64,000 nt of DNA, taken from positions 1,557,834 through 1,621,833 of the forward strand of contig MU004189.1 of the NCBI GenBank assembly GCA_010093605.1. Direction: 5' to 3'. Positions 1 through 38,586 of this stretch are shown here, one piece after another. Origin of the DNA: Lophium mytilinum. Lineage: Eukaryota. A program made the translations under genes and the position numbers. Every line of letters starts with the position of its first letter. Positions within the stretch are counted from its first letter, which is position 1. A model generated the notes under the pieces. That model worked only from the letters and a program-made list of their open reading frames with translations, was not told where the DNA came from and did no database searches.

Positions 1-2038
1 GATGGAGTCCAATCATACCCTGGTGGCCAGTCTTTGGAGACCGTCGAAGATCATGTGGCTCGTCAAGTAACGCTTTACGTTCTAAGATTCAAGGAGGTCG
101 TGTTCGTCCAGAATTTGCTTGAAGATGACCGGTTTTCCAACGTATCAGAGTCCTACCTGAAGCGAAACCCTGTAGGCAAAGCAGTCATAGCAATCCCTAT
201 ATTGCACGGAAACGACGACATTCTACTCGGCTCGATATACGTCGAAGGACCCCCAAATAGCTTCACTGAAAGGAACACAAACGTCCTCCGACTCCTTGTC
301 AACCAAATTGCCATATCGCTTGCCAATGCTCTACTTTTCAAGCGGGTCGAAAAAGTGCGCGCGAGCAATGCAGCTATGTTGGAAATGCAAAAGAACTCTC
401 TAGTCCAAGCACGGGAAGCTGAAAACAAAGCAAAGGAAGCAGAAGCCGTCGCTATTCGCACGATGAAGTTGAAAGAGGAGGCAGCCAAGGCGAAGTCCCT
501 TTTCCTTGCGAACGTGTCGCACGAGCTACGCACGCCTCTCAACGGTGTTATTGGCATGAGTGAGCTTCTCAAAGCTAGTCCACTCAACGCTGAGCAAGCG
601 GGATATGCAGATAGCATCCGCGTTTGTGCAGATACCCTTCTTTCGATCATCAACGACTTGCTAGACTACAGCAAACTGGAGGCTGGCAAGATGAGTATGA
701 TATCGATGCCACTGAGCTTGACAGAAACAATTACCGAAGTCGTTCGTGCGTTGTCGTACACGAATGCCGAACGAGGGCTAAAAACCATAGAGCAGCTAGA
801 ACTAGATCCCGATCTATTCGTCATGGGAGATCCTGTCCGTCTCCATCAGATTTTGATGAATTTACTCTCGAACAGCTACAAGTTCACGCCCAATGGCTCG
901 GTTACAGTCAAAGCTACTGTGCAGCGAGAAGACGCAGACACAATTGACATCACTTGCAGCGTCATAGACACTGGAATTGGTATACCGGACGAGCAAAAGA
1001 AGAAGCTCTTCCTTCCATTCAGCCAAATCGAAAGCTCCAGCTCACGGAGCTATGGTGGTACCGGCCTAGGGCTGAGTATCTGCAAAGCAATCATCGAAAA
1101 CGTAATGATGGGCAAGATCTGGCTCGAGAGCACACCAGGAGTGGGAACTACGGTATCATTCTCGCTTAAGTTCAAAAAGATTCCTAAATCGGAGGCTATG
1201 CGAATGGAATGGGATTCGCGCGATCCCGATCCCATGGCGAAGTTTTCTGCTCAGGAGAACAATGGCCACGAGCAGCTACCAAACGGTTGTATTGATCTCT
1301 CTAAGGTTCCAAGGAAAGAGCTTCGTATTTGCATAGCCGAAGACAATCTCATCAACCAGCGGATAGCGATTTCGTTTGTGCAGAGGCTTGGGTTCATGTG
1401 CGAAGCTTGCGCAGATGGCCGGAAGACAATAGATGCGCTCGAGAAGGCAAGCGAAGAGGGTTTCCCGTTCCATCTTGTAAGCATAATTCCTGAAAGTATC
1501 CTTTGGGGGCAAAGCTGACATCCGATTTAGGTCTTGATGGACGTGCAGATGCCCGTCCTAGACGGCTACGACGCCACCAGAGAAATCCGACAGCACAAAG
1601 ATCCCGTAATCCGCAACGTCCTCATCATCGCCATGACCGCATCTGCTATTCAGGGGGACCGTGAAAAGTGCTTAGAGGCGGGCATGAACAATTACCTGGC
1701 AAAGCCAGTCCGGTACGCACCACGTCCCCTTTCTATCTCCCAGGTTACAGAAGTACATAAGCTAACGGTCGCATAGCGCCCAAACACTAAAAGCACTCCT
1801 CGAGTCCTATCTCTCCCAGCCTGAAAAGGACATGCCGGACCTCCAGCAACAGGCCAACACGCTCGCTAGACGGGTCATGATAGATGCTGAAAATGACGCC
1901 TCGGAAGTGAAAGAAAACCAGCGGCCCAAAAGCTCGAGGGAGAACACGGCGCTCCGGACGGGTGCGGTGCAGCAAGGGGCTCTCAAAGATTCGTCCACCA
2001 CCACCACCCCGACACCCGAAACAAATGGGACTTCTTGA
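1..2038 (+). CDS. Hybrid sensor histidine kinase, 3' part (GAF-HisKA-HATPase-REC; resembles group X/Chk1-Mak2/3 type); 5' end lies outside the window
   Basis: GAF-like segment, then H-box [16 protein letters not shown]-box [11 protein letters not shown] boxes DTGIG and GGTGLGL, and receiver AEDN...VLMDVQMP...KP. Introns 1477-1530 (GTAAGC..TAG) and 1713-1776 (GTACGC..TAG) join the ORF pieces in frame to the stop at 2038. Confidence 0.93.
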
Positions 2039-2690
2039 TGGCGTTGATATCCTAGAAGCGCTGCTTTTTGTATACGACGAGATACATGGCATCACGAGCT
2101 GTAGGAGTTCGTTCATCGTCATGGATTTTCATGATCCATTGCTCTAGAGTTATTAAATACCCGGATGGTCAGGAGGATATCTGAGTGAACGTAAAGGGCG
2201 TCTGGAATGCAGGCTTTTCAAGACAACATCTGGTTATGGTTTTGGTTAGGGGCATCGCGCTGGTGTTGGTGGGTTTTCTTCTATATATTGATTGCGGCGA
2301 CGGAGCATGATTGCAGGACTCAGCATGCAAAGGGAGGAATTCACGAACACGTATATATGAAGCGGGAGCTAGGCGTTAGTGGGTGCAGTTTTCTTGGCTT
2401 CGATTGTCCGATAGATTAGACATCTGGCACTTGAAGTCGCCACAAAGGCTACAATGGAATGAATTTGCATCTAACTTCTTATTACTACCGTGGTGGAAAT
2501 TGCAAAGATCTCGTCAGTCAGTAGTCTTATTGCTAATCTGAGCCAGTGATCTTCCGTAAAGAATGATGACCAACATTCAGAAGTCCATCAGATTAGATTG
2601 ACGTCGGAGCGGAAAATCTATTCGGCAACTCTAATGACTCCACCATCCCAGCCCAAATTCTTTTTTGGCGTGTCATACTACAATGTTCTA

Positions 2691-4193
2691 ATGCGAAAAC
2701 TCCTCTGGACAATTACAAATGTTCGCTCCATCCTCGCCCCCTCAAGCCTCCGCCGCACAACTCACTCTGTGGCGGCCACCCCTACGGATGGTCACCTACT
2801 CGAATCCGCAACGATGAGCAACACCGAGGCCACAATGCCTTCCTCCTCGCCCATGAAGACCGACATCCTCCAAGTAGACACTTCTCGTATCGGAGAAATC
2901 AACACGAGCAACACCACAGACTCCCCCTTGGATAACTGGGATATCAAATGGGCAGTCAACACTCCCGACCTCGCAAACCTGCAACGCGCAGCCTCGGAAC
3001 TACGCACAACAAACACCCCCGTCGCCTTCCCCACGGAAACAGTATACGGCCTAGGCGCCGACGCGACACGCAGCGCCGCAGTCCTCGGAATCTTCGAAGC
3101 CAAGAAGCGGCCCGCCGACAACCCCCTCATCGTGCACTTCCACTCGCTGCAGCAACTCCGAACGCTGCTGCAACCCACCACCACCGACGGCACCGACGAC
3201 CCCATCCCCGCGATATACGCGCCGCTGATCCAGCGCTTCTGGCCGGGGCCGCTGACGCTCATCCTCCCGAACCCGCCCGGCTCGGCCCTGGCGCCTGAGG
3301 TCACGGCGGGGCTGCAGACGTTCGGCGCGCGCATGCCGCGCAGCCTGCTCGCGCTGTGTCTGATCAAGCTGGCGGGTGTGCCGCTGGCGGCGCCGTCGGC
3401 GAATGCGTCGACGCGGCCGTCGCCCACGGCGGCCGAGCACGTGAAGGACGATTTGGACGGGCGCATCCACACGATCTTGGACGGGGGGCCCTGTGGGGTT
3501 GGGGTGGAGAGCACGGTTGTGGATGGGCTCAGCTCGCCGCCGTCGATCTTGAGGCCGGGAGGGATCACGTTGGAGCAGCTTCGCCAGTGTCCGGGGTGGG
3601 AAGGGGTGGTTGTGGGCTATAAGGATAAGCCGGAGCAGGAGGGGCGGCCGAGAGCGCCGGGGATGAAGTATCGGCATTATTCGCCCAAGGCGACGGTTGC
3701 GCTGTTTGAAGCGGGCGCTGGGCAGCCTGATGTGGGGACTGTGTTGAGTTATGTGGGGAAGATGAGGAGGATTGGCATTATTAGGACGAAAGTGTGGAAG
3801 GCTGCGTGTGGGTTGGCTGTTGTAATCAACAACGGCGTCGACGAGAAAGAACTTCAAAATGGAGATGCCAAGGTCCCGACTCAGGAGGAGGTTGGAGATA
3901 AGGCAACCTCCCAGCCCGGTTTCCTCGATCTCCTACACTCCCTTGCCCCAATCCCTATCCCCCGAGCCCACCAAATGTCTCTCCAACTCAACGGCTCTCA
4001 AAACATCGAGATCTGGGATATCGATCTAGGAGCAGCCACGGCAGGGGTCGCGCGCGGTCTCTTCTCCGCCCTTCGCGAACTCGACAAACATGACGTCGAT
4101 GCCATATTCGTAGAGGGCGTCGACGACACTGAGGGCGACATTGCTACCGCAGTGATGAACCGGTTGAGGAAGGCTGCTGAGGTGAGGATATAG
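2691..4193 (+). CDS. SUA5: Threonylcarbamoyl-AMP synthase Sua5/TsaC (YrdC plus SUA5 domains)
   Basis: Motifs VAFPTETVYGLG, KKRPADNPLIVH, APSANAS, GVESTV, PGMKYRHYSP and VMNRLRKAA. Intronless. First ATG at 2691, second in-frame ATG at 2814. Confidence 0.96.
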   Translation: MRKLLWTITNVRSILAPSSLRRTTHSVAATPTDGHLLESATMSNTEATMPSSSPMKTDILQVDTSRIGEINTSNTTDSPLDNWDIKWAVNTPDLANLQRAASELRTTNTPVAFPTETVYGLGADATRSAAVLGIFEAKKRPADNPLIVHFHSLQQLRTLLQPTTTDGTDDPIPAIYAPLIQRFWPGPLTLILPNPPGSALAPEVTAGLQTFGARMPRSLLALCLIKLAGVPLAAPSANASTRPSPTAAEHVKDDLDGRIHTILDGGPCGVGVESTVVDGLSSPPSILRPGGITLEQLRQCPGWEGVVVGYKDKPEQEGRPRAPGMKYRHYSPKATVALFEAGAGQPDVGTVLSYVGKMRRIGIIRTKVWKAACGLAVVINNGVDEKELQNGDAKVPTQEEVGDKATSQPGFLDLLHSLAPIPIPRAHQMSLQLNGSQNIEIWDIDLGAATAGVARGLFSALRELDKHDVDAIFVEGVDDTEGDIATAVMNRLRKAAEVRI

Positions 4194-4208
4194 AAAACCA
4201 TATAGACA

Positions 4209-5530
4209 CATTGTAACCTCCCATCTTGTCAATCCTACGATTAACAAAACGACACATCCAATTCGAAAGTGTTGTATTACTCGGGGACAGGCTTGCAATA
4301 CCATGCGTGGGTGGGGCAGCTGTGCTCGAACGGCGGATAAGTGAGATCATCTCCACGCTCGTCTCCGCTATTACTGGCCGTACACTCTTGAATTAACGTA
4401 CGACGAGGGCTGTCCGGCTCAGAACTAAATCGCCTAGCATAGAACCTAGGTAGGGAATAGTAGCATCACGTCTCCCTCTTGATCACGTTTGCGAGTGTCA
4501 GTCCAAGCGAATGAAGTCTAGGGCAACACGCGTTCGTTCCTGTGGTACACTTTCCGGGAGTGGTAGCCTTGCAATGGTAGAGTCCGGTACGCCCGCAAAG
4601 TATCCTCTCTACGAGGGTTACAAGTTGTATTTCCGGCGTCGACTTTGCGGTCCCACTCTCCTTTCGCTGATATTTGCGCGAGTAGTAGGTCTGACCAGCG
4701 TATGTACGTACGAACGCGCAATCATCAGCATCACACTTGGCAAGCTAGCCAAGCTTCGAGCAAGAAACTACGACATCATCATCGTCAACAGCTCACAGAG
4801 CGAGGGGAAGTTGCGATACGCGTTGCCCTAGCACCTCATCCGCCAAACGACGAGCTCCACACTGGTCTAGAACAGTCGGAATGCCGACGACCCCACACCG
4901 AGACATAGATGCTTGCGGGGTTTGGGAGAGTCAGTGGACGGAGAATGTCTCGGGGAGTGCTGCGGCCAACTATGTGTGGTGGAATACGCTTGCTCACCCT
5001 CGCTCCCACTCCAGTCTGAAAGCGAGTCAAGCAGAAATGACTTCCTTCGTGACTAAAATGCGAATGGTTGGTAGGAGGATGTCCGGTCTCGCGATACAGA
5101 GCGCGTCTGGCATCTGTGCATGTCCTAGACTTATGAAGTCTTGGCTAGAAATGTGGTATAGAAGAGAGTAATAAATATGGAGACGTAAAACGGTCGCTTC
5201 TTCCCGTGCCCGTGATCCAACATTATTAAATAGTGCCCATGTGAAGGACATTTGATTGGTATGGTTAAGAACCAATCACATTCCCGAAAAACGGGGTGCC
5301 TGAATTAGTGTACCAGAGTTTGGAGGGGTGCTAGTTAGTTGATTTGCGGAGGGTGAGGAGATGGTCATCATAGTAACATAAGAGGTGGATGGAGAAAGTA
5401 GGGAGTTGAATTCTGTTGGGAGTAGACTAAGAACGGGTAAGAGCATGTGGGGTGTTCGGAGCTTATGTTTCGCTGTCTAATGAATTGATGAGATTGGGAA
5501 GGAAAAAAAAGACTGTTCACCTCGACTTCG
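4209..5530 (-). ncRNA. Candidate long structured non-coding RNA of unknown family (possibly a large H/ACA-like RNA)
   Basis: No recognisable protein. Minus-strand TATAAAT at 5558-5552 is followed by a pyrimidine-rich leader. Many nested inverted repeats, including a ~25-bp stem (4507-4533 with 4818-4843). Terminal hairpin 4221-4252 is followed by ACA (4214-4212). Ends are approximate. Confidence 0.45.
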
Positions 5531-5753
5531 TATTGAAGCGTCTGACACGCAATTTATAGGCATCATGAACCCGCTATAAATGCAGAGACTGAAGAGGCGT
5601 CGTAGTCATTGGGCAGAGCGTCTCGCCTTGCTCAGTGGCGCTAAAGGCCCGGTAGGAAAGGCTAGTTTACGTGATGATGTACAAGATGAGCATACTTCAT
5701 TCAGTCTGCTTACAGGGTCTACTCAGTAAGAATAGAAGCAGAGTTCTCTCCTC

Positions 5754-7168
5754 CTAAGCAAGGACCTTGTCTGCAGCCGACACTAGCAGAAAGTTAGTTG
5801 TAGCTGCATGTTGTCTACAAGGACACTCACCACTGATTCCGGTATTGTCTGGTTCAACGAAGGCCTCTTTGACTTTCCCGTCTTCAACAAGAAGGGCATA
5901 TCGTTTGCCACGCGGGCCTCCGAAGATGGCGCTAGCATCGAAGTCAAGGTCTAAGGCCTTGGTGAAAGCTAGGGCAGGGTCGGCGATGAAGCGGATCTGT
6001 TGAGGTTAGCTAACCATCCAGTAAATAATTAAGGATGTAGGAGTTGAGATCCGAAGGATGATAATTGATGTGATTGCATGAGAGAAGAGGCTGCTTACTC
6101 CGCTCTTTCCAGTGGGATCGAGGGCCTGTCCCCATGCTTTCATTCTGATGGATGTTAGCACTAAGCATATTCGGAATTCCATGTAATTTATTGGAAAGTT
6201 TCATAGAAGCCGACGATAATTCTGTCTGAGCAAACTAGGCCTAATTGGGTGTTTCAAAGTCTGAAACAATTGTGGGGTGGTGAGGGAGAGACCCGTGGGT
6301 CAGAATGGCGCTCGAGGTCGAGACTTTATCGCCTCATCATCGAATCCACCAGCCAAGGCTCGATAACCACCATTGAAGACCGACGTTGACAGGAAAAGAG
6401 ATGATGTTTGACATACACGAAGGCGTCATTGACCGATACAACGAAGACGGGGCCGGCATCCTTCAGCTTGGGAGAGTTGATATAGCCAGGGATGTGGGAC
6501 TCGGAGCAGCCAGGACTGAAAGCCGCAGGAACACCTGCATCGCGGCTGAAGTTAGAAAGTGATACGAGTCGGATTACGAGTGACCTCTGGTATTGGAGAT
6601 GTTGCCCTGGTGCTGTTCGGTAACGAGTTGCAGTGCTATGATGTTCTACCGTGGGCGCTCGTCACTCGTGCTGAGGTGCTTCAATGCCTTTCCAAGAATC
6701 TAGGTGCAAATGACTGGCTCTTTGAATTGGATCGATGACACTGGCGACTTAGAATAGTAATATATAACTTGAAGTCCCTGAAGTCACAGGTAGGACGTAA
6801 TGAGCGCGTTAATTTTAAGAAGAGGCATTGAAACACGCAAGCAGTGATGATGGAGTGCACCCGGAGAATGGCTAGCACTGCAAACTGAGGTCATTGATGT
6901 TGTTTTTTGCTTACCCACAATCACACCCTTCCCCGTGAGCTCCTTGGCGAGGCTGAGCTTGGTGCCGGGCGAGTTCTCCATCAGGTCCACATCGGGGATG
7001 CGATCGCCAGCCTTGACGAAGACGGGCGGCGAGATGTGAAATTGGCGTCCGCTGTGGCGGCCAAGAGCGGTCCGCGCTGCGGGCTGCGAAATGTCAGGTG
7101 GAGGCACTGGCACGAAGCTGACTAGGGGTACAGACACTGGCGCGCAGGAGGCGATTTGCTGCGAACAT
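5754..7168 (-). CDS. Prx5/Ahp1-type (Redoxin) peroxiredoxin with mitochondrial-type presequence and a single Cys
   Basis: Six exons assembled by eye: MFAANRLLRAS|PAARTALGRHSGRQFHISPPVFVKAGDRIPDV...GVIVG|VPAAFSPGCSESHIPGY...VSVNDAFV|MKAWGQALDPTGKSG|IRFIADP...KRYALLVEDGKVK...|SAADKVLA*. Contains the peroxidatic PxxFSPGC motif and VNDxFVMxAW. Confidence 0.93.
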
Positions 7169-9175
7169 GCTGCAGGTGGCGAGCAGGCGAGGTGCTTGTT
7201 CGGCGAGTCAGCGGCGCTATGGGCGGCGGGTGTGGACGTGGTGGAGGTTGATGAGGTGGAGGAGATGGGAATGCCGGGTCGAGGAGTGCCACAGAGGCCG
7301 TGAAACGTGTGGTGGCCGAGGAGGCTTTCACGACATCCGACCGAAGGCCGCAAGCCCGCAAGCCGGCAAGCCCACCTGGAAAGCCGCCGTGCCAGGTGCT
7401 CGGGCCAGTGTCGATCGGCCCCTGCTTGGGGATACGGGATTTTCAAGATGTGGCGTTTCATGCGCGGATGCAGCCCGTGCGGCCTGGGATGCAGCTGTCA
7501 GCTGCGATGCTGAGCCGACCCAGTGCGTCACCATGGAGAGAAGAACAGGCCGAACAGGCCACCACTTCACGGCCCGCTCTCGCAGCCGGCATGAAAAGGC
7601 CACAAGGGTCTCCCTATGTCAGTGAACCACACCCATGTCCGGGCCCGTCGAATATCGAAAGCGGCCGAGCTGCTGCTGCCGATCCTCGCAAGCCGCCTCT
7701 CCCAAGCTGCGAGCATTCTCCACATGCACTTGTGTCGCAGCCGTCCATCTCTAATGCTCGCTATTACACTACGTACTGCACTGTGGCAGCCGTGCTATTT
7801 CAGGATGCAAAAGCACCCCAGCCGCTCCTCTTTTGCGAGTGTGCAGAGAGCCAATCGGCTGAGAGTGCAGCTTCGCCTGGCTGCGATTCGCAAGATTCAC
7901 GCCGTGCTGGTCGATCTCTGCCCGCTAGGTGTGAACCCTGGCGACACAGTAAAGTGCTTCTGTTGCTTGCAGCAGGGTTGCTTCGCTTTGGCCTGTCGGT
8001 ACGCCGCCTGCTTTTTACCGCCTTTCCGTCTTTCCTCTAGCCATTCCGCCTTCAATGAGGCGCCTGGAGAATGGCAAGAAGGCGGCGCCAAGGTTGAGGT
8101 TGACGTTGACGTTGTACTGTACATACCAACCATGGATCACTGCGAGCAATGCCACGAATACTGCATTTCGCGGGCCTATGAACTGATGACTCTGAGTAAC
8201 CGTTTCCACAAAATGCATTTGCGTGGCCTTTAAAGGGAACGTTTCTCAATTTGTAGCTTGAGCCACGCCATCGCGCGCCTGTACTTCATTTATAGACATA
8301 CTCATCTATTTTCGAACATCTCCACCTACTTCAACACACAAACGTACCTGTTGGGCATGGTCCCAACACCCGACGACGTAATCTAAAGGCTCTGCGTGTG
8401 CCGATGGACTTGCTAAGACGAAGAAGTCGAGGTAGGCATATCGCCTTAGGCGGGTTAAGAATCGAACACCGCCCTCCAGAAGGGTACCGAGAGTTAGGGA
8501 AGAGCACACCTCATTGTCCCTCCAAGACCCCCCCCGTCCTCTCCCCCCGCGTTGATTCCTCTTCGCGTTAAGGAGCACATCGCGGAGGCTAGTGGCTTGT
8601 CCCCATTCGCCCCAAGACGCCCCAGTGGACGTCCTTCAGCCCACGCCAATCTCACACCTCTCTACCGACCTGCAGCCCGCGCTAGCCACAACTAACGACG
8701 GCAAGTTCTTGCCCAGGTGGGCACATTCCTCTCATCTCGCACTAGCTGCTGCCGCTACGACAGGGAGAGGAGGGACGCCAATAACCCTATCCGCACCTCT
8801 TCATCCGCCCTTACCCAGCCCTGGCGCCGCCTCCCTCCATCCTTCTCCATCTCCACCGCACAATACCCATCACTTGAGCAGTGCTCGTTCCACACCACCT
8901 CCGCCTTTCCCTCGTGGACGTCGTCGCATCCGAAGCCTTCGCCCTTTATCGATAGCCCCCAGCAGCCATCCACCACCTCGGTTTCTCGCACCTCAAAGGC
9001 ACGTAGTGCGCCGCGCATCCCGCATTGTACTGGTCGCACTCACCATTCTCGACCATCTCACGCGCGGAGCCTCGACCCTGACCCTAGGAAGTCTCCTAAG
9101 AAAGCAACTATCGTCCCTCGATCCATTGTTGGCCAGTTGGAAGTCGAGCAGTCGCCGAAAGGCTTTGCCTTCACG

Positions 9176-11357
9176 ATGGACGCGAACCAAGGAGGCTCCG
9201 GGGCTAACTCCAGCGACTTTGTACGTCTGCCTGCAATTGCGCCCAGTCACTGGCCACATTCTAACCATTGTCACAGGTTCGCAAGCTCTACAAGTGCGTT
9301 GCCGAGATACCCAATGCGATCGTGACCCCGCTAAACTGGACAATAGAATGTTGGAAGCCCCCGCCGACGATACCGTAGTACGATGGGGCAATGAAGGAGA
9401 CAGCTTCGTCGTACTGGAGGTGGGTCCCCTCGCGCAAAGACCCTCGATAGGATGCTGAACATATGACAGAACGAAAAGTTTACGAAACACATCTTACCGA
9501 AACATTTTAAACACAGTAATTTCGCAAGTTTTGTTAGGCAGTTGAATAAATACGATTTCCATAAGGTGCGGCACAATAACGAGGAAAATGGGCAGTCGCC
9601 ATATGGCGCCGGGGTATGTTCGATTCATGGTTGACGTCGTTGCCGAAAACCAGTACGCTAAGGTTACTGCAGGCTTGGGAGTTTAAACACCCAGATTTCA
9701 AGGCAAACAACAAGGACGCGCTCGATAACATTCGAAGAAAAGCTCCGGCTCCGCGAAAAATGAACCAGACTGCGGAGGACGTTATGATCCCCACAGCGCA
9801 AATGGACCTGGTCAACACCCAATTAATAGCCACCCAACAACAGCTCCAGTCAATCTCGGAACGGTACAACGAGTTGAGCATTCACCATTCAATGCTTCTA
9901 CAGGAAGTCATCGGACTTCAGAAGACTGTCGTAAACCACGAGCACGTGTTGGGGAATGTGATGAACTTTCTGCACACGGTGGACGCGCAAAGGAGGCGGG
10001 ACAGCAGAGTAGCCCCATTCCCCCCGCCGACCCAGAACGGGAACACGGTTGACTCTCAGAACCCACAAGTCACTCCTCTCGAGGACGATGTGCCGGCATC
10101 GCCCCTGCAGAATGCATCCAAACTCCTCAGCGAGACTAATGCCGACGCCATGCTTAACCCAAGAAACCTGGAACACATGAACGAAATCACAATGCGGATG
10201 AACGGGACTTTGACGACGCCTCCACCAGAGCTAATGCGTAGGCCAGTCAGCCGTGGCGCTGCTCCAGCTTCCGCGTCTTCCACGAACTCGATGCGCATAG
10301 GCGACCTCGACAATATTGTCTACCCTGTCGGCCAGACGCACGGCATCGACCCAACGTATAGCGAGCACATTCATAACATCCCATATCCCATGCCCTCAAA
10401 ACCCGCTGAGGCAGCTGACGCGAAGCTTCAGCCAGTCGAAGGGGGAAGGAAGAAGAGCACGCAGGTAGATCCAGGTTGGATCCGCCAGCCCCAGATTTTG
10501 TTGGTTGAAGATGATCCAACCTGTCGGCGTATCGGCGGAAAGTTCTTATACGCATTCAACTGTGCTATTGACAATGCTGTAAGTACCAGCCTACAGAGTC
10601 CCAGAGGCTGATGTAACTGACCGTCCGAAGCTTGATGGACTGGAAGCAGTAAACAAAATGAACGCAGGCGCAAAGTATGACTTGGTCTTGATGGATATCA
10701 TCATGCCTAATCTGGATGGCGTGTCCGCCTGCCACCTCATTCGCCAGTTCGATAGTACTCCGATTATTGCCATGACGTCCAACATCCGAAGCGACGACAT
10801 ATCCATGTATTTCCAGCATGGTGAGTTGGCAAGAGATGCAGCAAAGAGAACCCAGCTGACCAGACACAGGCATGAACGATGTTTTACCTAAGCCTTTCAC
10901 CAAGGAAGGCCTTCTCCACATGCTTGAGAAACACTTGGCGCATCTGAAGAAACCTCTTCACCAAATGGACGGAATGGTGCCGCCTCAACTTTTGGCGTCC
11001 ACTAGACAGTCCCTGAAAGACGAGGAATCACCTGCGAAATCGCCTGCGACGATAAGTAACTGGAATTCTCCGAATCAGATTCCAGGCGTTTCTCCCGTGG
11101 GCAGCAATGTTACCGACGAATATCTGAGCACAGTACAAGCTCATCCAGCCGCTTACGGCGTTAGCTCCATGGTTGGCAACATTGGATACAACACATCACC
11201 GCAGATGCCGATGCCTCAAAGACAACAAGGTCCCCACAGAAGACAAATTTCGGATATAGCAGGGGGTGAAGATATGAATAACCCCGCCAAACGCCAGCAG
11301 ATGTATGCTCCGCCACTACAACCACAACCAATGAATCCGATGCAGCGGCCACGGTAA
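9176..11357 (+). CDS. SKN7: Stress response regulator Skn7/SrrA/Prr1 (HSF-type DNA-binding domain, coiled coil, receiver domain)
   Basis: Spliced HSF domain (DFVRKLY..ML..., [39 protein letters not shown]) and receiver ([33 protein letters not shown]). Multiple short GT-AG introns. Confidence 0.97.
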
Positions 11358-12902
11358 CGGAACCTATGTCGAGGACCCAGTTTTGATCTTCTTTATCAGT
11401 CGACCGCTGGTGTTCTGGAGTGGCTCATTCGCCGGTCGGCAGCGCGTGTTTCATCCCCCCGTCGCTCACACTAGCGAAGTCAGTCTCTTGCATCCGCGTT
11501 CGAATTGACTTCATCCGCCTTTCAAACCTCACTCTCGACTTCGAACCCAACGTCATGTCTCTCCGCCTTCAAGAACTATGAACTCTATCTATGGTGGCTG
11601 CTATCTAATAGCAAGGACGCAAAAGCAACTCCAGACAACCTTATACCCAATCTCAACCTAATCGTGCCTGCAGACGATACCTTTGACTCTCAGTTGGCCA
11701 CTTATTCTTACACAACACTTATGCCGCATCGAGCAGTCTGCCGCGTCTGCTGTTACCTTACCTCACACTGCGTTCCCAAAGGTAGTCAAGACGTTGACGC
11801 AGGCCGTAAACCTCGGATACCATGCTGGGCATGATTCGCCCTCTTGTGTCCTGGACTCCTTATTGGATGTGGCCGCGGTGCGGTGTGCGTGTATTAATGG
11901 GCGTATCTACGGATACGTGCGCGAGGCTGATATTTCATGTGCTCTGTACACTGCGCTGTTCTTCTGTCTCTACTGGGTTGTATTTCGGTGCGTCGTTGAA
12001 AAGGTGGTTCAGTGAAATGCACTGACGGGAATGTCGCGGAACGTGTTTCAAGTGGCTGGCGTCGCTTTTTCCAAGATACTTGAATGCGAAAGAGGGCCTC
12101 TATAGACAAAGAGTGGCTCGTGGGGAGGGCAAGAAACGAGTATTGAAGTAAAGATAAGGTCTTGCGCAGAATCCTGCAGAATATCCGGGGACATGCCCGA
12201 AGAGTATTCACTAGGACAGTGATCTGTCAAAACTACCATATAGTGTTCTTGAATATATGGGCTGTTCCAGTTGGCTGCTTGACCCATCGACAGGGGTGGT
12301 CTTGTATGTGTCTGGTCCGTCACAATATTTTTACAATTACCTTGAACACTAAGCTAGTGATGCCTATAATATGGAAGCTTAACCCTGATCGAGCACTCCG
12401 GCTCATAGTGAAAGCGCTTAGACAATCATGTTTCTAGTGCTAGATCCAGACGAAGCTACCTGTTGGGCCTTTGTTTGTAAACGAGATTTTTTGGATGCGG
12501 CAGACTGAAAGTTTGGTAGCGGGCTTGGCTTTGAGACCCAATCCCTTAGTGGCATGAATTATCTGTTCTTAAGAGTTTCTAATGCTTCTGCAAGCATAAT
12601 CAAGTGAAGGCTGCAAATTGATGAGCTGTAGTCGTATTAAGGTGTGTCCCTAGCAACGGCCAAGCACAGAATCTAGACCTCTCGGACTCCCCCAGGATCA
12701 GCCCAAAGCCACGACCTCGACCGACGACAAGCAGCACAATCCCGAGAGCGCGTCACCCCAGGGCCCTGATCTGCTCCAGAGCTGCGGCTAGCCGCCTGAC
12801 TCATATTTTTTCTGCAGCCCGCGCGTTGAGGCCGGCGTCACACCTTGTGGCTGCGAAGCTCTCCCCACCACCCACCTCCCACTTCACGTTTTCGATACAG
12901 AC

Positions 12903-27974: not shown

Positions 27975-28420
27975 CTGTAGTTCCATGCAAGCCCAGCATG
28001 AGGAACCGCCTCCACAGCCCTCTGCAGTAGGCGGTAACGCCCGACACTGGGGGAGAGCTTGCCGGCTTGCTGGCGGCTCGATCCTGGAGGAAGAAGTCAA
28101 CAGATAGCAACGTCTTCGGACTGCGCAACAGGCCCTTTGGGGTCCCTGGCATGTTTTACTCAGAGGCACCTGTGTGATTGTTGAGTTTAATCGCTTTTCC
28201 TTTTTTGTGTTTGGTGCTTGGTTTTGGTGGAGGTTGGGAGGGCTTGGAGCGGCCGGAGCGGTGGTGGTGAGAGGATCTTGTACGGCTTTGGGGAGGTTTT
28301 TCATCCCCGGGGGGTTTGTCCCTGGGGGTTTTCCTCCCGCGAAACTCAAAAAGATAAACACTAATTTCGTTGGTTTTGCTTGTGATGTCTTCACTTTGCG
28401 TGTGCTGGGTGTCTATATGG
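27975..28420 (+). ncRNA. Candidate structured RNA element(s), possibly intron-hosted snoRNA-like
   Basis: Dense hairpins: ACCGCCT 28005/AGGCGGT 28029, CCCAG/CTGGG, GAGC-TGCCGGC/GCTGGCG-GCTC, GTC-TTCG-GAC, and GGGAGG..CCCCGGGG/CCCTGGGG..CCTCCC. They lie between a GTACGT donor-like site (27672) and a TAG acceptor-like site (28458). No credible protein. Confidence 0.3.
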
Positions 28421-31400
28421 AGTATCTATCCAAGCTTGACTGTTGGGGTGTTGCGTAGGGGCTACGTGGGTGTTGGACGCTCTTCGTCGGGTGGCGAGAA
28501 GTATAGATGGATGGTAATTCTTTGCAAGACCTGTTAGAGGCGTTCGTAAGTTTAAGTAGCTCTTTGGTGATGTCCGGATTGCTTCAGAATATTAGCTTGT
28601 CCACGATTGAATGTCGCTTCCTTTAAGCTACACGTCTAGCAGGCACATACAACTAAGAAAGCTTCAGTTTGATTATAAAGCTTCTAATTAAAAAGGTTTC
28701 AAGTCATCTCAAGCTATATTGACTGCTTGAATCAATCACTTCGCACGTGAGAGACTTGCCGACAAGACCTGGATTACCTCAACAGTTAGTTCATGACTTT
28801 CGAGAGTCAAGAGAAGCGCTTCTTGGCTCATTACTATTGTGACACCGTGGATAAGTATATTCACGAAACCCTCCAAGCTGAAATCGGAAGCTTGAGAAAA
28901 TAGGCGGCGGGAGGTTCAGAACCCCTATGTTGTGACGTGAAACACCCGGGATGTGGTTGAATCGTCAGTCTGCCGGGCGGTGTGGTTGTAAGCTCCAATA
29001 ACGGCAACTCACAACAACTAGGAAGTAAAGTTAATAGCCGTAATCTTAACGTTCCTAACGTATTTCCGCGCACGCACTAATACCCGCACTGGCCACCATA
29101 TTAAATCCGGCTGAGCCCCTTATTAGCCCCCTCTCCACGGGTATACGCGTTTAATATAACTTATTTCCAATATAGATAGTAGCTAGATATATAATTTAAA
29201 CGTGCCTAATTTAATGCACCCGCTTATTAGGCGCGAAAATTATAAAAAATAGGTATTTTTAGCCTTATTTTAAATAAAAATTACTCTAAATTATACTCTC
29301 TCCCTTCTATAGCCTACCTACCTCCTTTTCTACTACTTTGCAACGCTATATTAACTTATTCTAAACGCTAGGTATCTAGTATATACTTAAACTAGGTATT
29401 AGAATATTAAGATCTATATTAGAATAGAAAATTCTATTTATATAAGAAGCCTACTAAAATCTTACCTAGCGCGTTTTAAACGCGCTATTAAAGAAGATTT
29501 TAATATTCTACTATATAAGATTAAATGTTTAAGATGTTTCTAGAATATACTTTAGTACTTCTTAGCCCTTATTAGCACCCTATAAAGGGCCTAGTAGTCT
29601 TTATTAGTAATAAGTAGCTTAGTAAACCTTATAGCTAAATATTATACTATATAGTAATACTACACTATATAGTAATACTATATAATTATACTATATAGCT
29701 ATATAGTTTATCTATAATAAGTTACTTAGTAGATCTTATAGCTATATAGAAGTATATAGATTTAAATAGAGTTATATTTATTTATAATAATATCTAAGTA
29801 TTATTATTCTTATTATTATCCTCTATAACGTTCTACCCCTTCTTCTTAATATCTTAAGGTAAGGCTCTACCTATATTACGCCTAAATTTAGCTATAATTA
29901 CTTAAGGGGTTTATTTAATTCTCTAGTTTAAGCTATACCTATAGAGATACTTCTTATTAAAACTATTACTCTAATAGGCCCTTACTCTCTTTATATTCTT
30001 TTTATTAACCTTCTTTTGCCGGAGCTTAATAGTATTAAGAAGAGAAGACTATTTTAATAGTTTAGGCTTCTTCTTCTTCTTTAGTATAGTAGAATACTGC
30101 TTCTAGAATAAAAGGTTATTATTAAACTCTCTTCTTTTATCTATAAAAATCTATAAAAAATAAGCATTTATCTCTAATAAGAAGAGGGGGTATTTATTTC
30201 TAATAAGAATAAGAATACTTACTTTCTAATTACTATACTTCTACTTAAGTTTTATCTATATTAGATTTCCTTTATACTTCTATATATTAATCTAATACTT
30301 AAGTAGAATAGAAACTCCCTTAATTATTAGAAATACTTCTGCTCCTTAAGGTATTTTCTATCCGCCTTTAATCTTTATAATACCTAAAGTACTATTAATT
30401 AAGATAATAGGTAGTATAGAAACATTACTACTAATAAAAGTTACTATTCTATGCGGTATAATAATAGTTATCTCCTTCTTATCCTTCTCTAGCGTAGCCT
30501 TCTTCTTTCCCTTTATCTTAGGACGCTTTATTAGAGACGGCTAGTCCTAGTACTAGTAGTTAGTAGGAGAGGGGGGGCTTTTAACTTATTATTAATAAGT
30601 TAGAGACATAAAAGAAGGCTATAGCTAGTGCCGCTTAGAAAGGTTATAGATATAATAGTATATAAATAAGGCAGTAATACTACTACTAGCTAGAGGATAG
30701 TTCTCTAGTATTAATATAATTTAGCTTTACTCGCTAGGGCTAGAACGGGGGCTAAAAGAATCCTCTAGGCGTAAGGGTACCTGCGTTATATATAACTAGC
30801 CCTGCTATCTAAAAATAGGCTGCATTATATATAACTAGCCTACCCGCGGTACCTAGAATTAATTACTTTCTAGAGGCATTAGTTTCTACTATAGATTTAT
30901 TAGTAATAACTAAGGCTACTATAGATGCGTTATAGATAATTATATTAGTAGAGGCTACCTAATAGAAGAAATAGAGAGGGTATAGCTAGGTACTAGTAGT
31001 AGAGAGTTTATTATAGATAAAAAAGGTTTCTATATAGGTAGTAGAGTATATTCTTAAGATATAGTAAACTACTTATATAGTCTTAGATATACTACTTTTA
31101 CTACTACCTTACTTTCTTCTTAAATTTAAATTAAAGTCTTAAAGTTATAGAAGATATAGCTTTTAATCTATACTTCTAGCCTACTTATCTTAGCCATTAG
31201 CTAGAAGTTATTATCTAGAAAAGTATTATTTTAGGGGGGCTAATTAGCCTGCTACTTTAGCTATTCTTTAGCTAAACGCTCTTAAAGAGAAGCCTTTAAA
31301 ATAGCGCTCGCTTTTAAGGGTATACTAATTTATTTTAAATAAGTTAAAGAATAGGTAGTATATAGATAGGTAGTATATAAATAGATAGGCTAGTAGATAG

Positions 31401-33551
31401 GCTAATACTAGGGGTTTATAGATAATAAAGGGTGTAAAAAAGTATATAAAAAGAGGTCTTTATTAATAATAAGGTAGCTTATTCTAATTTAGACAACGGC
31501 TATTACTAAATATAAATAAGCCTAGCGTATACCTATATTAAATTATGCGTTAAAATCTACCCTTCTATCTACTTATTAATAATAAACCTATACTTATTAT
31601 TCTCTATACCTCTATAAAAAGCTAAAATAGCTAAGGCTAAGTCCTCGCCGCTGTAAACCCTAAAGAGCGCGTTAAAAATAAAGCCTAAGAGAGGGAAGAA
31701 AGCAGTTATTATAGATAAAGATAAGCTAGAGCAGCTTAAGAAGCTTATAGTAGCTATACCTAAGTCTATAGTAAAGTAAGTAACTTAAGAAGAAATACTT
31801 AATAATGCTAATAAGGAGGAGGGCGTTAGTAATAAAGGGGAGATTATAACTAAGATTATCCGCCAGAATACTAAGTTAGTAGTCCTTAGCTATTTAAATC
31901 CTAATTTATTAAAGTTAATTAATAAGCTATAGAGTAGAAAGCTTATAGAGAAAAATAAAGAGTACTAGCTTTATATAACTAAAGGGAGCCTTATATAAGG
32001 TACTATAAAAGCGTATTAAGGGTATATTCTAGATAAAGATATATCTTATTTATTTCTAATAAGTACTAGGTAGTAGGCTAAGTTTCTAAAATAGCTAAAG
32101 TTCTATAAGCTACAGGCCTATAAATATATTAATACCCTGGATAAATAGGCGCTAAACTATTTTATATAATAGATTTAAGGGATAGTTAAAATAAGAAAGG
32201 TAATAAAAGAAGACTTAGAGTAGAAAGCAGGTATAAAGTAAGGCTAAAAGAAGAAAGTAAAGCCTTATTCTAGATAAGCATCTACTACTACATCTATTAC
32301 TTTAGGCGCTATATCTATTACTTTAGGCGTTAGAGATAAAGATAAGAATATATAGAATTCTAGCACTTTATACTTCTATACCTAGAAGATAAGGGCTATA
32401 ATTAGCTAGCACTATTTATATTATTATTAATAAGAATCTAATCTTTAGGTAAGGCAGGCTAATAGTATATATACTAGAAATCTATTAGTATCCTATACTA
32501 TTTACTACGCAATAAAGTAGCTCTAGAGGGAGAAGGTATACTACTACTATCTATTAGCTTTATTTATTACTAATAATAGCCTAGGTTATAGCTAGAGAGG
32601 TACTAGAAAGCGCTTAAGCTATCTAAGAGTAAGATCTTTAAAAGATATATAAAGATACTAAGGCTTATTTTAAATAACTAGAGAAAGAAGATACCTCTTC
32701 TTTCTCTTATCTAAAGGATAAAGATAGAAGAGCACTCTAGGCAGGCTATAGGTAGAGAATAATAATACATCTAGCCTATGCTATTATATTTACCTACCTC
32801 TTATAACTTAAAGAGGTTCTTTAAATTAAGATAAGTAATATACGCGTTTTTAATAAAAATCCTAGGTCTATTAAGATTACTCTTTTTTTCCGGAAAACTT
32901 ATTAATATAGAGGTATACTACCCCCTTATTTCTAATAAACCTACTTATTATTAACGCATAAATAGAGGTAAAGCCATTTATTATCTATATATAATAGAAG
33001 AACCTATAGATTTCTATACCTAATCTACTACTTAAATAGCTTTATCTATTAGGTATTTACTCCGGCCGCCTATTCTAAAAGTTTAACCTATATAACTAGC
33101 CCGTTATTAATAAGAATAAGTTAATTATAGGTTCTCCTTTATTATAAACGCGCCTGCATCTTTATTAATAATAATAGTCCTCTTCTTAATTTATTTTTAA
33201 CTTTTAAAACAATCTTATAGATATTAGCTATAACCTAATTACTTTCTCTAGCTATTCCTTTTACTAAGGTAGCTGCTAGTAGCTATCTAGTAAGCGGCGC
33301 TAGAATATATAAAAGATCTATAATTAGAGTAGCTAGTTAGAGAACTTCTTATCTATAATAATTATAAAGTATCTTATTAGTTAGAATAATAGGCTAACTT
33401 ATAAGCAGCAGGACTTTATAAACCTAAACTTTTATTATAAATAAGTATACTATAGTTATAATAGAACGTGCAACTATATATAGCCTTATACCTTTATCTC
33501 TAATAAGTATAAGCTATACTTATTAGGGACGAAGGTACTATATAGCTAAAT

Positions 33552-33638
33552 TATAGCCTTTCTATATAGCCTCTCTATATAGCCTCTCTATATAGCCTCT
33601 CTATATAGCCTTTCTATATTATATATAGCCTTTCTATA
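33552..33638. repeat. 13-bp minisatellite (TATAGCCTYTCTA)n inside the RIP island
   Basis: About 5-6 consecutive copies are visible. Confidence 0.8.
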
Positions 33639-34414
33639 GTTCTACTTTATTTTAAATAAATATATAGAATAGGCTTAAGGCTTAAGTATTAGTACTAGTA
33701 GATTTTTAAGGCTTAAGTATTAGCGCTAGTATAATAGTATATAAGAGCGTTAGAAATAAAGGTATAAGACTATATTAACTTAGAAAGAAGGTAAAGAACT
33801 CTAGAAGTATTAAAAATAAGTAAAGAGCTATAGAAGCGTTTAAAACAAAGATATAAGACTATAAAAGAAAAGAAGATATAGAATTATAAGAAGAAAACGC
33901 CTAGAATTATAGCTATATTAGAAATAAAGGTATATAACTATAACTATACTAGAAGTAAAGGCATAGAACTATAACTATATTAAGAATAAAGATATAGTAC
34001 CTCTATAGCGTTCTTAACGTACTCTTATATACTATATTATATTACTAATCTTACTATACTTTCTAAGCGTTCTTAACGCACTATATTATATTACTAATCT
34101 TACTATACTCTCTAATAGTCCCCTAGTAATCTTCTATAGTCCTCTAGTAATCTTCTATAGTCTCTAAGTATTTCTAATATAATCTTATACCTTACTAATC
34201 TTACTAATCTAGCATACTCCCTAGTAGTCTCCTAGCATTCTTAACATTCTTAATATAATCTTCTATAGTCCCTAGTATTCTTAATATAATCTCCTATAGT
34301 CTTTTAATATTTCTAGCGTTTTTAATATAATCTTCTATAGTCTCTTAATATCCTATATAAATACTACAGTTATAAGGCTTATTATTAATAAATACTACTA
34401 TATTAACTTCCTTA

Positions 34415-35120
34415 GGCGCCTTATTTTAAACGCATACTCTCTATACTTAAGAGAGGGGAAAAGATTTAAACCTTATACTTACTTATTCTCTATAGTACTA
34501 TACTTATTTTAAATGCATACTATATATACTTTATAGAAGAAATAGATTTAAACCTTATACTTACTTATTCTCTATAGTGCTGCACTTATTTTAAACGCAT
34601 ACTGCATATACTTTATAGGGGGGATAGATTTAAACCTTATACTTACTTATTCTCTATAGTGCTGCACTTATTTATAATAAATACTACCTATACTTTATAG
34701 GGGGAATAAATCTAAACCTTATATTTACTTATTATTCTCTATATAGTTATACTTATTTATAATAAATGCTGCCTATGCTTTATAGGGGGGATAAATCTAA
34801 ACCTTATACTTACTTTTTATCCTCTATATAGTTATACTTATTTATAATAAATGCTGCCTATACTTTATAGGGGGGATAGATTTAAACCTTATACTTACTT
34901 ATTATCCTCTATATAGTTATACTTATTTATAATAAATACTACCTATACTTTATAGGGGGGATAGATCTAAACCTTATACTTACTTATTATTCTCTATATA
35001 GTTATACTTATTTATAATAAATACTGCCTATACTTTATAGGGGGGATAGATCTAAATCTTATACTTACTTATTATTCTCTATATAGTTATGCTTATTTAT
35101 AATAAATACTACCTATTTTA
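34415..35120. repeat. Tandem array of about 8 copies of an 82-85 bp unit inside the RIP island
   Basis: The anchor AAA-CCTTATA recurs at 34471, 34553, 34635, 34717, 34802, 34887, 34972 and 35057 (steps of 82,82,82,85,85,85,85). Confidence 0.9.
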
Positions 35121-35930
35121 TTCTTCTTCTCTATATAGTGCCGGTACTAGCACTATATAGAGAAGAATAAGGGCCTTATACTAATACTACTATTTAGACA
35201 GCGCGCTATTAATATATACTACGTATTTTAGTATATACTAGTAAAGAAGTATGCTCTCTAGAAGTTATAAGCCTAATTTCTAGAGTTAAGAGACTTATTT
35301 ATAATAAAGATTAGCCTTATAAGCTTCTTAGGTACTAGTATAGAAGTATACTCTCTAGAATTATAGTAGTTATAAGCCTATTTCTTAAAGTTAATAGGCT
35401 TATTTATAATAAGGATTAGCCTTATAAATATATTAGGTAGTATACTCTCCTAGAATAGCATTACTATATAATAGCTTTTAGTATTATACTACCTATTCTT
35501 ATACTAAAGCTTATACTAATACTAGAAATAGATAGAAAGATATACTCTATAATCTTATTACTAGCGGGGTATATAAAGTTATCTTCCGCTATCTTAGAGC
35601 TTTTCTTCTTTATTCTCTAACCTTCTATCTCTTAGGCTTATCTAGAATAACTTCTTTATTAGCTTTTATTACTCTTCTATTATTACTCTTTTATCTCTTT
35701 AGCTTATCTAGAACAACCTTCTCTTTACTAAAGCATCTCTTTAGCTTATTTAAAATAATCTATCTCTTTATAGCTTTATAAGCTTTATTAACCTTATCTA
35801 CTTTTTACTCTACTTATTAATAATAATACCTTCTAAGGCTATTCTATATTACTAGCGTATCGCTACCTATTACGCTAATATTCTAGCTAACCCTATAACT
35901 ATAGCTGCGCAGCAAGTATAAGTTCTTTAC

Positions 35931-35978
35931 CTTACCTTCTTACCTTCTTACCTTCTTACCTTCTTACCTTCTTACCTT
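35931..35978. repeat. 8-bp repeat (CTTACCTT)6
   Basis: Six direct copies read from the sequence. Confidence 0.85.
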
Positions 35979-37259
35979 TTTACCCTTCTTTAGCTTTATT
36001 TTTAATAATCTTCTAGGGCTATTACTTAGTATATAGCTTATTAAAACCGTATAAATAAGCTATAAAATACTATAGATATTAAGAAGCTCTATACTTATCT
36101 CTAGCGCTCTATAAATAGTATTTCTAAATACTAGAAATATTTTTATAAATATAAGCCTATACTAGGTATACCTTATAGTATAAATTAGCCTCTAGACTTA
36201 ACTACTATTCTAATTAGCCTTAATATAGAGGACCTTATACCTTATAGATGCGCCTAGCAGGAGGTAATAGTTAAAGAGTACCTTATTATAAAGAATATCT
36301 AGCCTTCTAACTCTCTTTCTAGCACCTCTAAGCTTCTAGTAAGGCTTTTTTTCTTTCTTTCCTCTTACTTTATCTCTAATAATCTTAGGTTATATCCTTC
36401 TATATTTATCTAGCATTCTTTAAACTACTAGATAGTATAATTAGTATCTTTTAAACTCTAGATACTATAAGTCTTCTCTTTCTTTCTTATTATTAATAAA
36501 GCTAATAAGATATAATAGCTAATTAATTATAATCTATATATTATAGAGATCTAGCTAGATATTATATAATATAGGCCTAATACTAATATTAATACTTCTA
36601 ATATCTAGCTACCTTATCTAGTATAAAGATAGCTAGTAGGTAATAATTAGATAATAGCCTCTATAGAATTAACTACAGTTTAAGCTTATCTTAAATAAAG
36701 GCCCCTATACTTTTAATTTCTTAATTTCTTAATTTTTCTTTTCTTATTTAAAATAAGAAGGCCTATAGGCATGCAGCTATACTCTAGAAGGTGCCTAATA
36801 TAATCTATTATATTAAAAATTAATAAAAATAACTTAATAAATATAATAAGAGATAGAATACTAAAATATAACTATAAGAAATAAAAGAAACTACTTATTT
36901 AAAATAAGGCCAAACTAATTAATTTCTAGCTAATTTTTAGGCCTTATATAATAGAAATTACCTTATAAAAGTATTATATATTACTTTTAAATAGTATTAA
37001 AGATTATTAGTAATATATTATAATTATTTAAAGCTTTCTAGTATATAGAAGAGTATTATTATAATTTTAGTAATAGTGGTGTTAACGTTTAATTTTAGTG
37101 GGGTGGCCCAAGCGTCAGCCCCCTGTTAGCGCGGATGGGAACGTCAAGTTGGCACAAGAAGTTGTTTTGGGGCTGTGAGGTAAGAGCGCGCTCCTTTTTG
37201 TCCTCACAGCTTCAACGCGTCGATGAGGGTATAACGGACGCTCCCTCTACACCATAACT

Positions 37260-38586
37260 ATGTTGGCCGGCCCTCCACGCCTCCTGTCGGTTGTCTCCGT
37301 CGCCGTTGTATTGCTGCTAGGCTGGTGGTACCTCAGCCTCGTTCACACTACGTCCGCGACACCTCCCCTCAAAACCGACCATTCTCCCCCGCCAAAGTCG
37401 CCCAAGAAGAACACGGGCTTCAGAGCGAGCGTCGACCCTCTCGACTTCAGCATCCCTCTCATCTTCACCCCAGGAACACCCAAGCCCGCAGGCTCCAACT
37501 ACTCGCGCATCCTCGTGCTGCCCAAGACCCAGAAAGAAGACATATTCTGGATCCATGCCGAGCTCCCAGACATCCCACTCGCCGTCTACCAAGTCGACAA
37601 TGACACGGCCGAGTTCCGCGTGCCCAAGAACAAGGGCCGGGAAGCAATGGTACGCCGCACTCATATATACACATCCTCACCCCAACGCGCCCTTACCTCC
37701 ATCCCATAACTCCAAACTAACCAACCAAACCACCGTGCAGGTCTACCTCACCTACCTAATCGACTTCTACAACGACCTCCCCGACACCATCATGTTCTTC
37801 CACTCGCACCGCTACGCCTGGCACAACAACATCCTAATGGGCCTAGACACCGCGCAAGCCATCCGCCGCCTCAGCGACGCCCGCGTCGCGCGCCTAGGCT
37901 ACATGAACACGCGGTGCCACACGGACCCAGGCTGCCCGGACTGGATCCACATGGACCGGCCCGTAGTCGACTTCGACGACTTCCACAAGCCGGAAGAGAA
38001 GTACTACCGCAAGGGCGTGTGGGACGAGCTGCACCCGGGGGCGCCCATACCGCCATCGCTATCCGCGCCGTGCTGCGCGCAGTTCGCCGTCAGCCGGGAG
38101 CGCGTGCAGCAGGTGCCGATTGAGCGGTTCATCCATTACCGCAAATGGCTGCTGGAGACGAGCATGGATGACCAGTTCAGCGGGCGCGTGTTTGAGTATA
38201 TCTGGCAGTATATATTTACGGGGAATGCGGTGTATTGTCCGGCGGTTAGCTCGTGTTATTGTGATGGGTATGGCATTTGCTTTGGCGGGGAGAAGAAGAC
38301 GCAGCATTGGTTTGAGGTGATGGATGAGCGCAATAAGTATTATGAGGAGTTAGATGGGCATAATAAGGAGAAGACGAAGGCGGAGGAGGAGGGGAAGGCG
38401 TTTGAGTTCACCGAGGAGGTGAAGGCGAGGATGAAGGAGTTGGAGGCTAAGATTAGGAGTATGGATGACGAGATGAATAAGTTGAGGGATGCGGCGTATG
38501 AGAGGGGAAAGGAGATACGGAATCAGGAGGCGGAGCGGGAGACGTATGATGATACTCATATCTGGGATAAGGTGGAGCAGAGATAG
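37260..38586 (+). CDS. DUF3431 family type II membrane protein
   Basis: N-terminal TM anchor, VPKNKGREAM|VYLTYLIDFYNDLPD..FFHSHR..WHN, CCAQFAVSRERV and SGRVFEYIWQYIF. Intron 37650-37740. Confidence 0.88.

Follow-up and report, generated by a model that had tools for sequence, protein, structure and literature searches.

The described systems closest to the locus reported here are fungal messenger RNAs (mRNAs) with long 3' untranslated regions (UTRs) or alternative poly(A) isoforms, the H/ACA RNAs, the telomerase RNAs of fungi, and foldback or miniature inverted-repeat elements. H/ACA RNAs, which include the large snR30/U17, consist of hairpins with an internal pseudouridylation pocket, and their ACA box lies three nucleotides from the mature 3' end. 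Telomerase RNA is the one large structured RNA of filamentous ascomycetes known to be transcribed by RNA polymerase II (Pol II). Its template in Pezizomycotina comprises ~1.5 telomere repeats, being 9 nucleotides (nt) in Neurospora (PMC3592445). In the basidiomycete Ustilago maydis, telomerase RNA is reported to be made from a protein-coding mRNA precursor (PMC9564094); among functional RNAs located in a 3' tail, this RNA cut from an mRNA is the closest parallel. Here, we analyse 64,000 nt of Lophium mytilinum DNA (assembly GCA_010093605.1, contig MU004189.1, positions 1,557,834 to 1,621,833; hereafter, the window) and, within it, the interval 4209-5560 between SUA5, which encodes threonylcarbamoyl-AMP synthase, and a peroxiredoxin gene. 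The original prediction, made from the letters alone, was of one large structured RNA on the minus strand, perhaps a giant H/ACA-type RNA or a new family. Our analyses show that the larger part of the interval is transcribed, and it is best explained by the 3' UTRs of two convergent genes, that of SUA5 being rich in foldbacks, rather than by a giant H/ACA-type or new structured RNA.

Like the long 3' UTRs of fungal mRNAs and their alternative poly(A) isoforms, the stretch behind SUA5 is contiguous with a coding region in RNA contigs, contains no credible open reading frame (ORF) and stops, in the contig, just past an AATAAA; it differs in its length of ~990 nt, well above the tails of its neighbours, and in that its strand is deduced and its 3' end is read from a contig. 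As in U. maydis, a conserved coding region and a large non-coding stretch behind it share one transcript; here, however, there is no telomere template and nothing that points to processing, and the organism belongs to another phylum.

Transcription of the SUA5-peroxiredoxin interval

The RNA data were contigs of one public run, which together hold 84% of the sampled words of 4100-5700. These contigs are unstranded, may merge overlapping transcripts and carry a single depth figure each; their ends are not measured RNA ends, and the parts of the window that they leave uncovered (2470-2717, 5183-5400 and 7098 onward) were not used as evidence. The four intervals that the contigs skip are exactly the GT..AG introns of the peroxiredoxin gene on the minus strand and, because the joints fall precisely there, RNA must have been present in the run.

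SUA5 (coding region 2814-4193, + strand, stop codon 4191-4193) and the peroxiredoxin gene (minus strand, stop codon TAG at 5757-5755) are convergent, and their stop codons are separated by 1561 nt. One contig of 2465 nt (record 2, depth 652.6) is collinear with 2718-5182 and has no joint; it runs through the SUA5 leader, the whole coding region and the stop codon, and continues for 989 nt, and its one depth figure makes SUA5 inseparable from the tail. In a second contig (record 3), 5401-5782 is spliced, over minus-strand GT..AG introns, to two further exons (5831-5996 and 6099-6144). The peroxiredoxin 3' tail measures at least 354 nt, and 5401-5754 can be read as its 3' UTR. It is within this spliced contig, and not at the head of an independent RNA, that the TATAAAT (5558-5552) of the original prediction is found. 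Some 220 nt between 5182 and 5401 lie outside contig coverage. No joint is reported anywhere in 4194-5700, all four being peroxiredoxin introns, so that the intron end that had been proposed at 5300 finds no support; neither contig end, at 5182 or 5401, is a GT..AG splice site on either strand. What survives of the large structured RNA is that the interval is non-coding, that its larger part (4194-5182) is transcribed and that it is richer in inverted repeats than shuffles, whereas the single unit of 1.3 kb starting from 5558 dissolves into two contigs and two genes.

The strand of the SUA5 tail is suggested by its end. A + strand AATAAA, a putative distal poly(A) signal, occupies 5170-5175, 7 nt before record 2 stops; outside an AT-rich block at 28300-37900, an AATAAA that ends 4-30 nt upstream is found for no more than 0.3% of positions on the + strand, or 1.2% if AATGAA is allowed as well. 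The gene upstream of SUA5, a histidine kinase on the same strand, is represented by an 11.4-kb contig that stops at 2469, 6 nt past an AATGAA, which puts the length of its 3' UTR at 431 nt or more. Two + strand contig ends thus sit directly behind A-rich hexamers. The end of record 2 is therefore best read as a poly(A) site on the + strand near 5182, which argues against the minus-strand RNA that had been proposed. At 5401, where the peroxiredoxin contig ends, no hexamer of this kind precedes on the strand of that gene, so the pattern holds in two cases out of three. Another AATGAA, at 4510-4515 on the + strand, has the same form as the hexamer of the kinase and could, from its letters, be a proximal poly(A) signal.

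On balance, 4194-5182 is probably a SUA5 3' UTR of ~990 nt, and 5401-5754 the 3' UTR of the peroxiredoxin gene. This is favoured because one unspliced contig spans the leader, coding region, stop codon and 989 nt beyond, and because that contig ends 7 nt past an AATAAA just as the kinase contig ends behind its own hexamer. The neighbouring tails are long too, the interval shows no coding signal, no homologues and no Rfam match, and its folding is ordinary apart from one domain, all of which favour the same conclusion. Two convergent messages would then meet in the interval, where a single RNA gene had been proposed. The SUA5 mRNA would carry a tail from 4194 to ~5182, ending at a distal poly(A) site just past 5170-5175 and perhaps being one of two poly(A) isoforms (the other using 4510-4515), while the peroxiredoxin mRNA would contribute 5401-5754 from the opposite strand. 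A foldback domain at 4500-4851 and the short repeats around it would be a property of the DNA, left by an old inverted duplication or foldback, and not the fold of a dedicated structural RNA; at most, they might serve as a UTR element with an effect on stability or translation. Whereas transcription, the lack of coding signal, the contiguity with SUA5 in RNA-derived contigs and the repeat excess are shown, we infer the strand of the SUA5 tail, its poly(A) site and whatever regulatory role it may have. If correct, the arrangement is an ordinary one, and its value lies in gene-model correction, that is, in the extents of the UTRs and in an intron call within SUA5 that the RNA contig does not support.

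Several observations weigh against two simple 3' UTRs. An unstranded contig over two overlapping transcripts would look like a single transcript; there is only one run, with one depth figure per contig; and 990 nt is much longer than the tails of the neighbours (at least 354 and 431 nt). On the minus strand, just upstream of 5182, there are CCAAT boxes (5258-5254 and 5271-5278), a CT-rich run and, at 5231-5222, the TATA-like sequence TATTTAATAA, and the two best helices of the interval read better on that strand, all six of their non-Watson-Crick pairs being G-U there. On the + strand, UA-rich motifs stand right behind the SUA5 stop codon at 4189-4207, including a TATA-like TATAGAAAA and CATATAG. 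At fungal 3' ends, such UA-rich motifs are typical.

Because the contigs are unstranded, a separate non-coding transcript on one strand or the other retains some probability, although it is not what we would expect. On the + strand, it would be a Pol II transcript that starts shortly past the SUA5 stop codon, overlaps the end of a short SUA5 message and ends at the same AATAAA near 5182. The hexamer 7 nt before the contig end, the motifs at 4189-4207 and the lack of an ORF all suit such a transcript, and unstranded contigs would merge overlapping tandem transcripts. We nevertheless think it rather unlikely: nothing indicates an internal start, the promoter would have to sit in the last codons of SUA5 and in its UTR, and a single transcript is the simpler reading.

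Inverted repeats, folding and the origin of the foldback

The stems listed in the original prediction are all present where it placed them, and the interval is indeed rich in inverted repeats. Between 4209 and 5560 there are nine perfect inverted repeats of at least 9 bp, whereas dinucleotide shuffles have 2.6 on average and none of 200 reaches nine; of the 40 tiles outside the AT-rich block, none has a higher count than the one overlapping the interval. The excess is genuine but the nesting is not: 11 of the 36 pairings among the nine repeats overlap or cross, and so they cannot all belong to one nested structure.

Folding is less unusual than the repeat count. Windows of 200 nt inside 4201-5600 have z scores from -2.4 to +1.7, like the flanks. 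Folded as a whole, 4194-5182 gives -1.62 on the + strand and -2.36 on the minus strand with 40 shuffles, and -2.25 in a run with 20; among ten values from five control tiles folded on both strands, which are rough, having 10 shuffles each, the range is -2.97 to +2.60 and one is at or below -2.36. Only a 350-nt foldback domain at 4500-4851 is clearly better than its shuffles (z -4.4 to -4.9). It is closed by a helix of ~25 bp (4507-4533 with 4818-4843) and holds hairpins at 4593-4650 and 4666-4729. The segment 4500-4850 has z -4.89 on the minus strand and -4.36 on the + strand, matched by 0 of 100 shuffles in each case, with limits that were chosen after the helix had been seen; when both strands were scanned with RNALfold without such a choice, the domain has z -4.02 and ranks fifth of the 38 clusters of at least 200 nt outside the AT-rich block. 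A 9-bp perfect stem (CCGAGACAT/ATGTCTCGG, 4898-4953) folds locally no better than shuffles (z -0.71 and +0.42). An 8-bp inverted repeat of two opposed CCAAT boxes (TGATTGGT / ACCAATCA, 5253-5278), which lies between both 3' tails where there is no contig cover, has z -3.02 and -2.00 in a 41-nt window.

Both the foldback at 4507-4843 and the excess of repeats might be what is left of an inverted duplication, or of a transposon of the foldback or miniature inverted-repeat type, that entered the spacer, a tentative suggestion that is compatible with any model of the transcripts. The two strands of the domain fold about equally well, a CAA adjoins its terminal arms of ~25 bp on either side, the nine repeats conflict with one another, and a second, unrelated foldback is present in a peroxiredoxin intron (6628-6884). 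A 337-bp unit with inverted ends that folds on both strands is what such elements look like; unlike them, it is single-copy in the window, is not AT-rich (G+C ~52%) and has no clear target-site duplication. No other copy of the interval or of a helix arm occurs within the 64 kb, no ends are common to the nine best foldbacks of the window, and a 3-bp match between flanks is weak evidence.

Comparison with relatives was made through SUA5. A metagenome scan with the protein returned five loci, at 41-63% protein identity, and blastn of window 1-12000 against these loci aligned the SUA5 coding sequence and nothing beyond it. At three of them (L001, L002 and L004) the SUA5 3' flanks are near-identical to each other (11411-11640 of L001) and do not align to the window. 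The downstream neighbour at L001 is different, a convergent ORF of 357 amino acids (aa) without a Pfam match, ~480 nt past the SUA5 stop codon.

The strand preference of the best helices bears on whether an independent long non-coding RNA (lncRNA) is transcribed from the minus strand, convergent to SUA5 and overlapping its 3' end. Such an RNA would issue from the CCAAT, TATA-like and CT-rich sequences near 5182, and the domain and a short hairpin would be real RNA structure. As originally predicted, the mismatches of both elements become G-U pairs on the minus strand, and the long helix scores 49.5 there, which one of 200 shuffles reaches, against 32 on the + strand, which 48 of 200 reach. The hairpin, a continuous 14-bp stem with four G-U pairs, no internal loop and a 4-nt apical loop (4221-4252), forms on the minus strand only; in an 81-nt window its z is -2.53 on that strand (2 of 200 shuffles) and -0.87 on the other (37 of 200). 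The whole-stretch fold is likewise lower on the minus strand, promoter-like motifs are found at 5258-5254 and 5231-5222, and a spacer of 1561 nt between stop codons is long for convergent fungal genes. Against this, an AATAAA on the opposite strand would have to fall exactly at the contig end by chance, and a second contig of the run ends alike at a gene known to be on the + strand. The long helix has two mismatches, both of them transitions, whose falling on one strand is a 1-in-4 event, and helices that score at least as well are present in 6 of the 92 tiles of the window. We consider a minus-strand lncRNA improbable.

Much the same holds for the broader proposal that the domain at 4500-4851 and the minus-only hairpin are selected RNA structure, whether of a lineage-specific minus-strand lncRNA convergent with SUA5 or of a stable non-coding RNA released from the SUA5 3' UTR, in which case it would resemble the basidiomycete telomerase RNA; we regard this as improbable. 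Were the foldback to prove conserved, with compensatory changes, in Mytilinidion, it would represent a new structured element or a 3'-UTR-derived RNA on a gene for t6A tRNA modification.

Coding potential and known RNA families

That the interval contains no credible protein had been claimed from the letters, and every test agrees. Its longest ORF from an ATG has 106 aa, and there is a further ORF of 96 aa, both on the + strand. Searches at the Pfam gathering score gave no match for six ORFs of the interval and one that overlaps its left edge; no homologue of the 106-aa ORF was found; and none of eight ORFs is present in a collection of 15 billion proteins. In-frame codon log-odds for the six ORFs tested range from -0.10 to 0.06, compared with 0.25 for SUA5 and 0.19 for a peroxiredoxin exon. 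Scans for tRNA genes and tandem repeats in the interval were also negative. Although the two + strand ORFs could be taken for an unannotated small protein gene, codon scores near zero and the empty searches make this extremely improbable, and the 96-aa ORF would stop 11 nt before the contig end.

The model of a single structured RNA of 1.1-1.3 kb on the minus strand, led by TATAAAT at 5558-5552, perhaps spliced at 5300 and ending in an H/ACA-like manner near 4212, is largely refuted, and we now give it very little credence. The motifs themselves are real: TATAAAT, ATACAA (4277-4272), the terminal hairpin (4252-4221) and ACA (4214-4212) all occur on the minus strand as described, and the inverted-repeat excess and the minus bias of two helices are in keeping with the model. 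However, 5401-5782 is joined to spliced peroxiredoxin exons, the stretch 4194-5700 contains no joint, and the record 2 contig continues through the ACA into SUA5. The likeness to H/ACA RNAs consists in an ANANNA and an ACA on either side of a minus-strand hairpin, motifs that are each expected once per 64 positions. The interval differs from that family in a size far outside its range and in a hairpin without a pocket.

H/ACA box RNA was rejected as a candidate: the continuous stem at 4252-4221 leaves no pocket for pseudouridylation, and no covariance model of the family matched, even at E up to 10. Searches of the whole window against Rfam 15 yielded no match at the gathering score; for RNase P/MRP, SRP, U3 and snR30 this bears out the original prediction, which had recognised none of their motifs. 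Relaxing the threshold to E up to 10 over 3900-6000 produced two chance matches only (mir-598 and PVT1_3), neither of them an H/ACA or telomerase family.

A telomerase RNA is scarcely conceivable: the size class fits the Pol II non-coding RNA of 1-2 kb known from Pezizomycotina (PMC3592445), there is no ORF, and the 7-nt TAACCCT at 4620-4614 on the minus strand lies in a loop closed by a 9-bp helix, but that one 7-mer is about what chance provides, neither strand of 4100-5760 contains an 8-nt permutation of CCCTAA, assuming a TTAGGG telomere for the species, and the Rfam telomerase families do not match. The template-pseudoknot core and the P6/P6.1 three-way junction of the Pezizomycotina RNA were not identified either, no model of these domains having been applied.

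Flanking genes and other foldbacks in the window

The SUA5 assignment rests on two Pfam domains, Sua5_yciO_yrdC (E 3.6e-51) and Sua5_C (E 8.7e-29), in the + strand ORF that ends at 4193. SUA5 belongs to the universal t6A tRNA-modification pathway, and its yeast homologue also affects telomeres. The closest named proteins are from Mytilinidiales (Dothideomycetes), with 100% identity over the aligned part and, for Mytilinidion resinicola, 88%. A conserved NRLRKAA motif ends the alignment in all four close homologues fetched, and two of the four terminate exactly in NRLRKAAEVRI; since this C-terminal motif is common to the homologues, the stop codon at 4191-4193 is taken as the real one. The closest named model (P0001, 382 aa) lacks 64 residues that the window carries in frame at 3819-4010, and the RNA-derived contig retains 3819-4010 unspliced; the annotated SUA5 intron at this position may be wrong or only partly used. 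Upstream of SUA5, window 1-2469 holds, on the + strand, the 3' part of a hybrid histidine kinase with GAF, HisKA, HATPase_c and Response_reg domains.

Outside the interval, the AT-rich block at 28300-37900 has a G+C content of 0.26 at 33001-33989, contains 22-54 perfect inverted repeats per 1352-nt tile and accounts for the most extreme RNALfold z scores of the window, which reach -11. The block resembles degenerate repeat DNA of the type produced by repeat-induced point mutation.

The peroxiredoxin gene (Redoxin family) occupies 5755-7036 on the minus strand, with introns at 5783-5830, 5997-6098, 6145-6416 and 6533-6912 that follow from the contig joints, and Pfam Redoxin matches on two exon ORFs. 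The intron at 6533-6912, with 380 nt, is unusually long, and contains the top-ranked fold outside the AT-rich block, a 257-nt foldback at 6628-6884 (z -5.45 on the + strand and -5.01 on the minus strand). Rfam searches of the peroxiredoxin introns returned one chance match only, and none for this foldback. Contigs that retain 6533-6912 and the 272-nt intron have depths of ~41-48, compared with ~1400 for the exons. Further upstream on the minus strand (7079-7170), the presequence-like MFAANRLLRAS begins at an ATG at 7168. Behind it lies a candidate 54-nt intron (GT..CTGAC..CAG), the splicing of which would lead into the peroxiredoxin frame; as read from the sequence, the gene may have its first exon upstream and encode a mitochondrial form of the protein.

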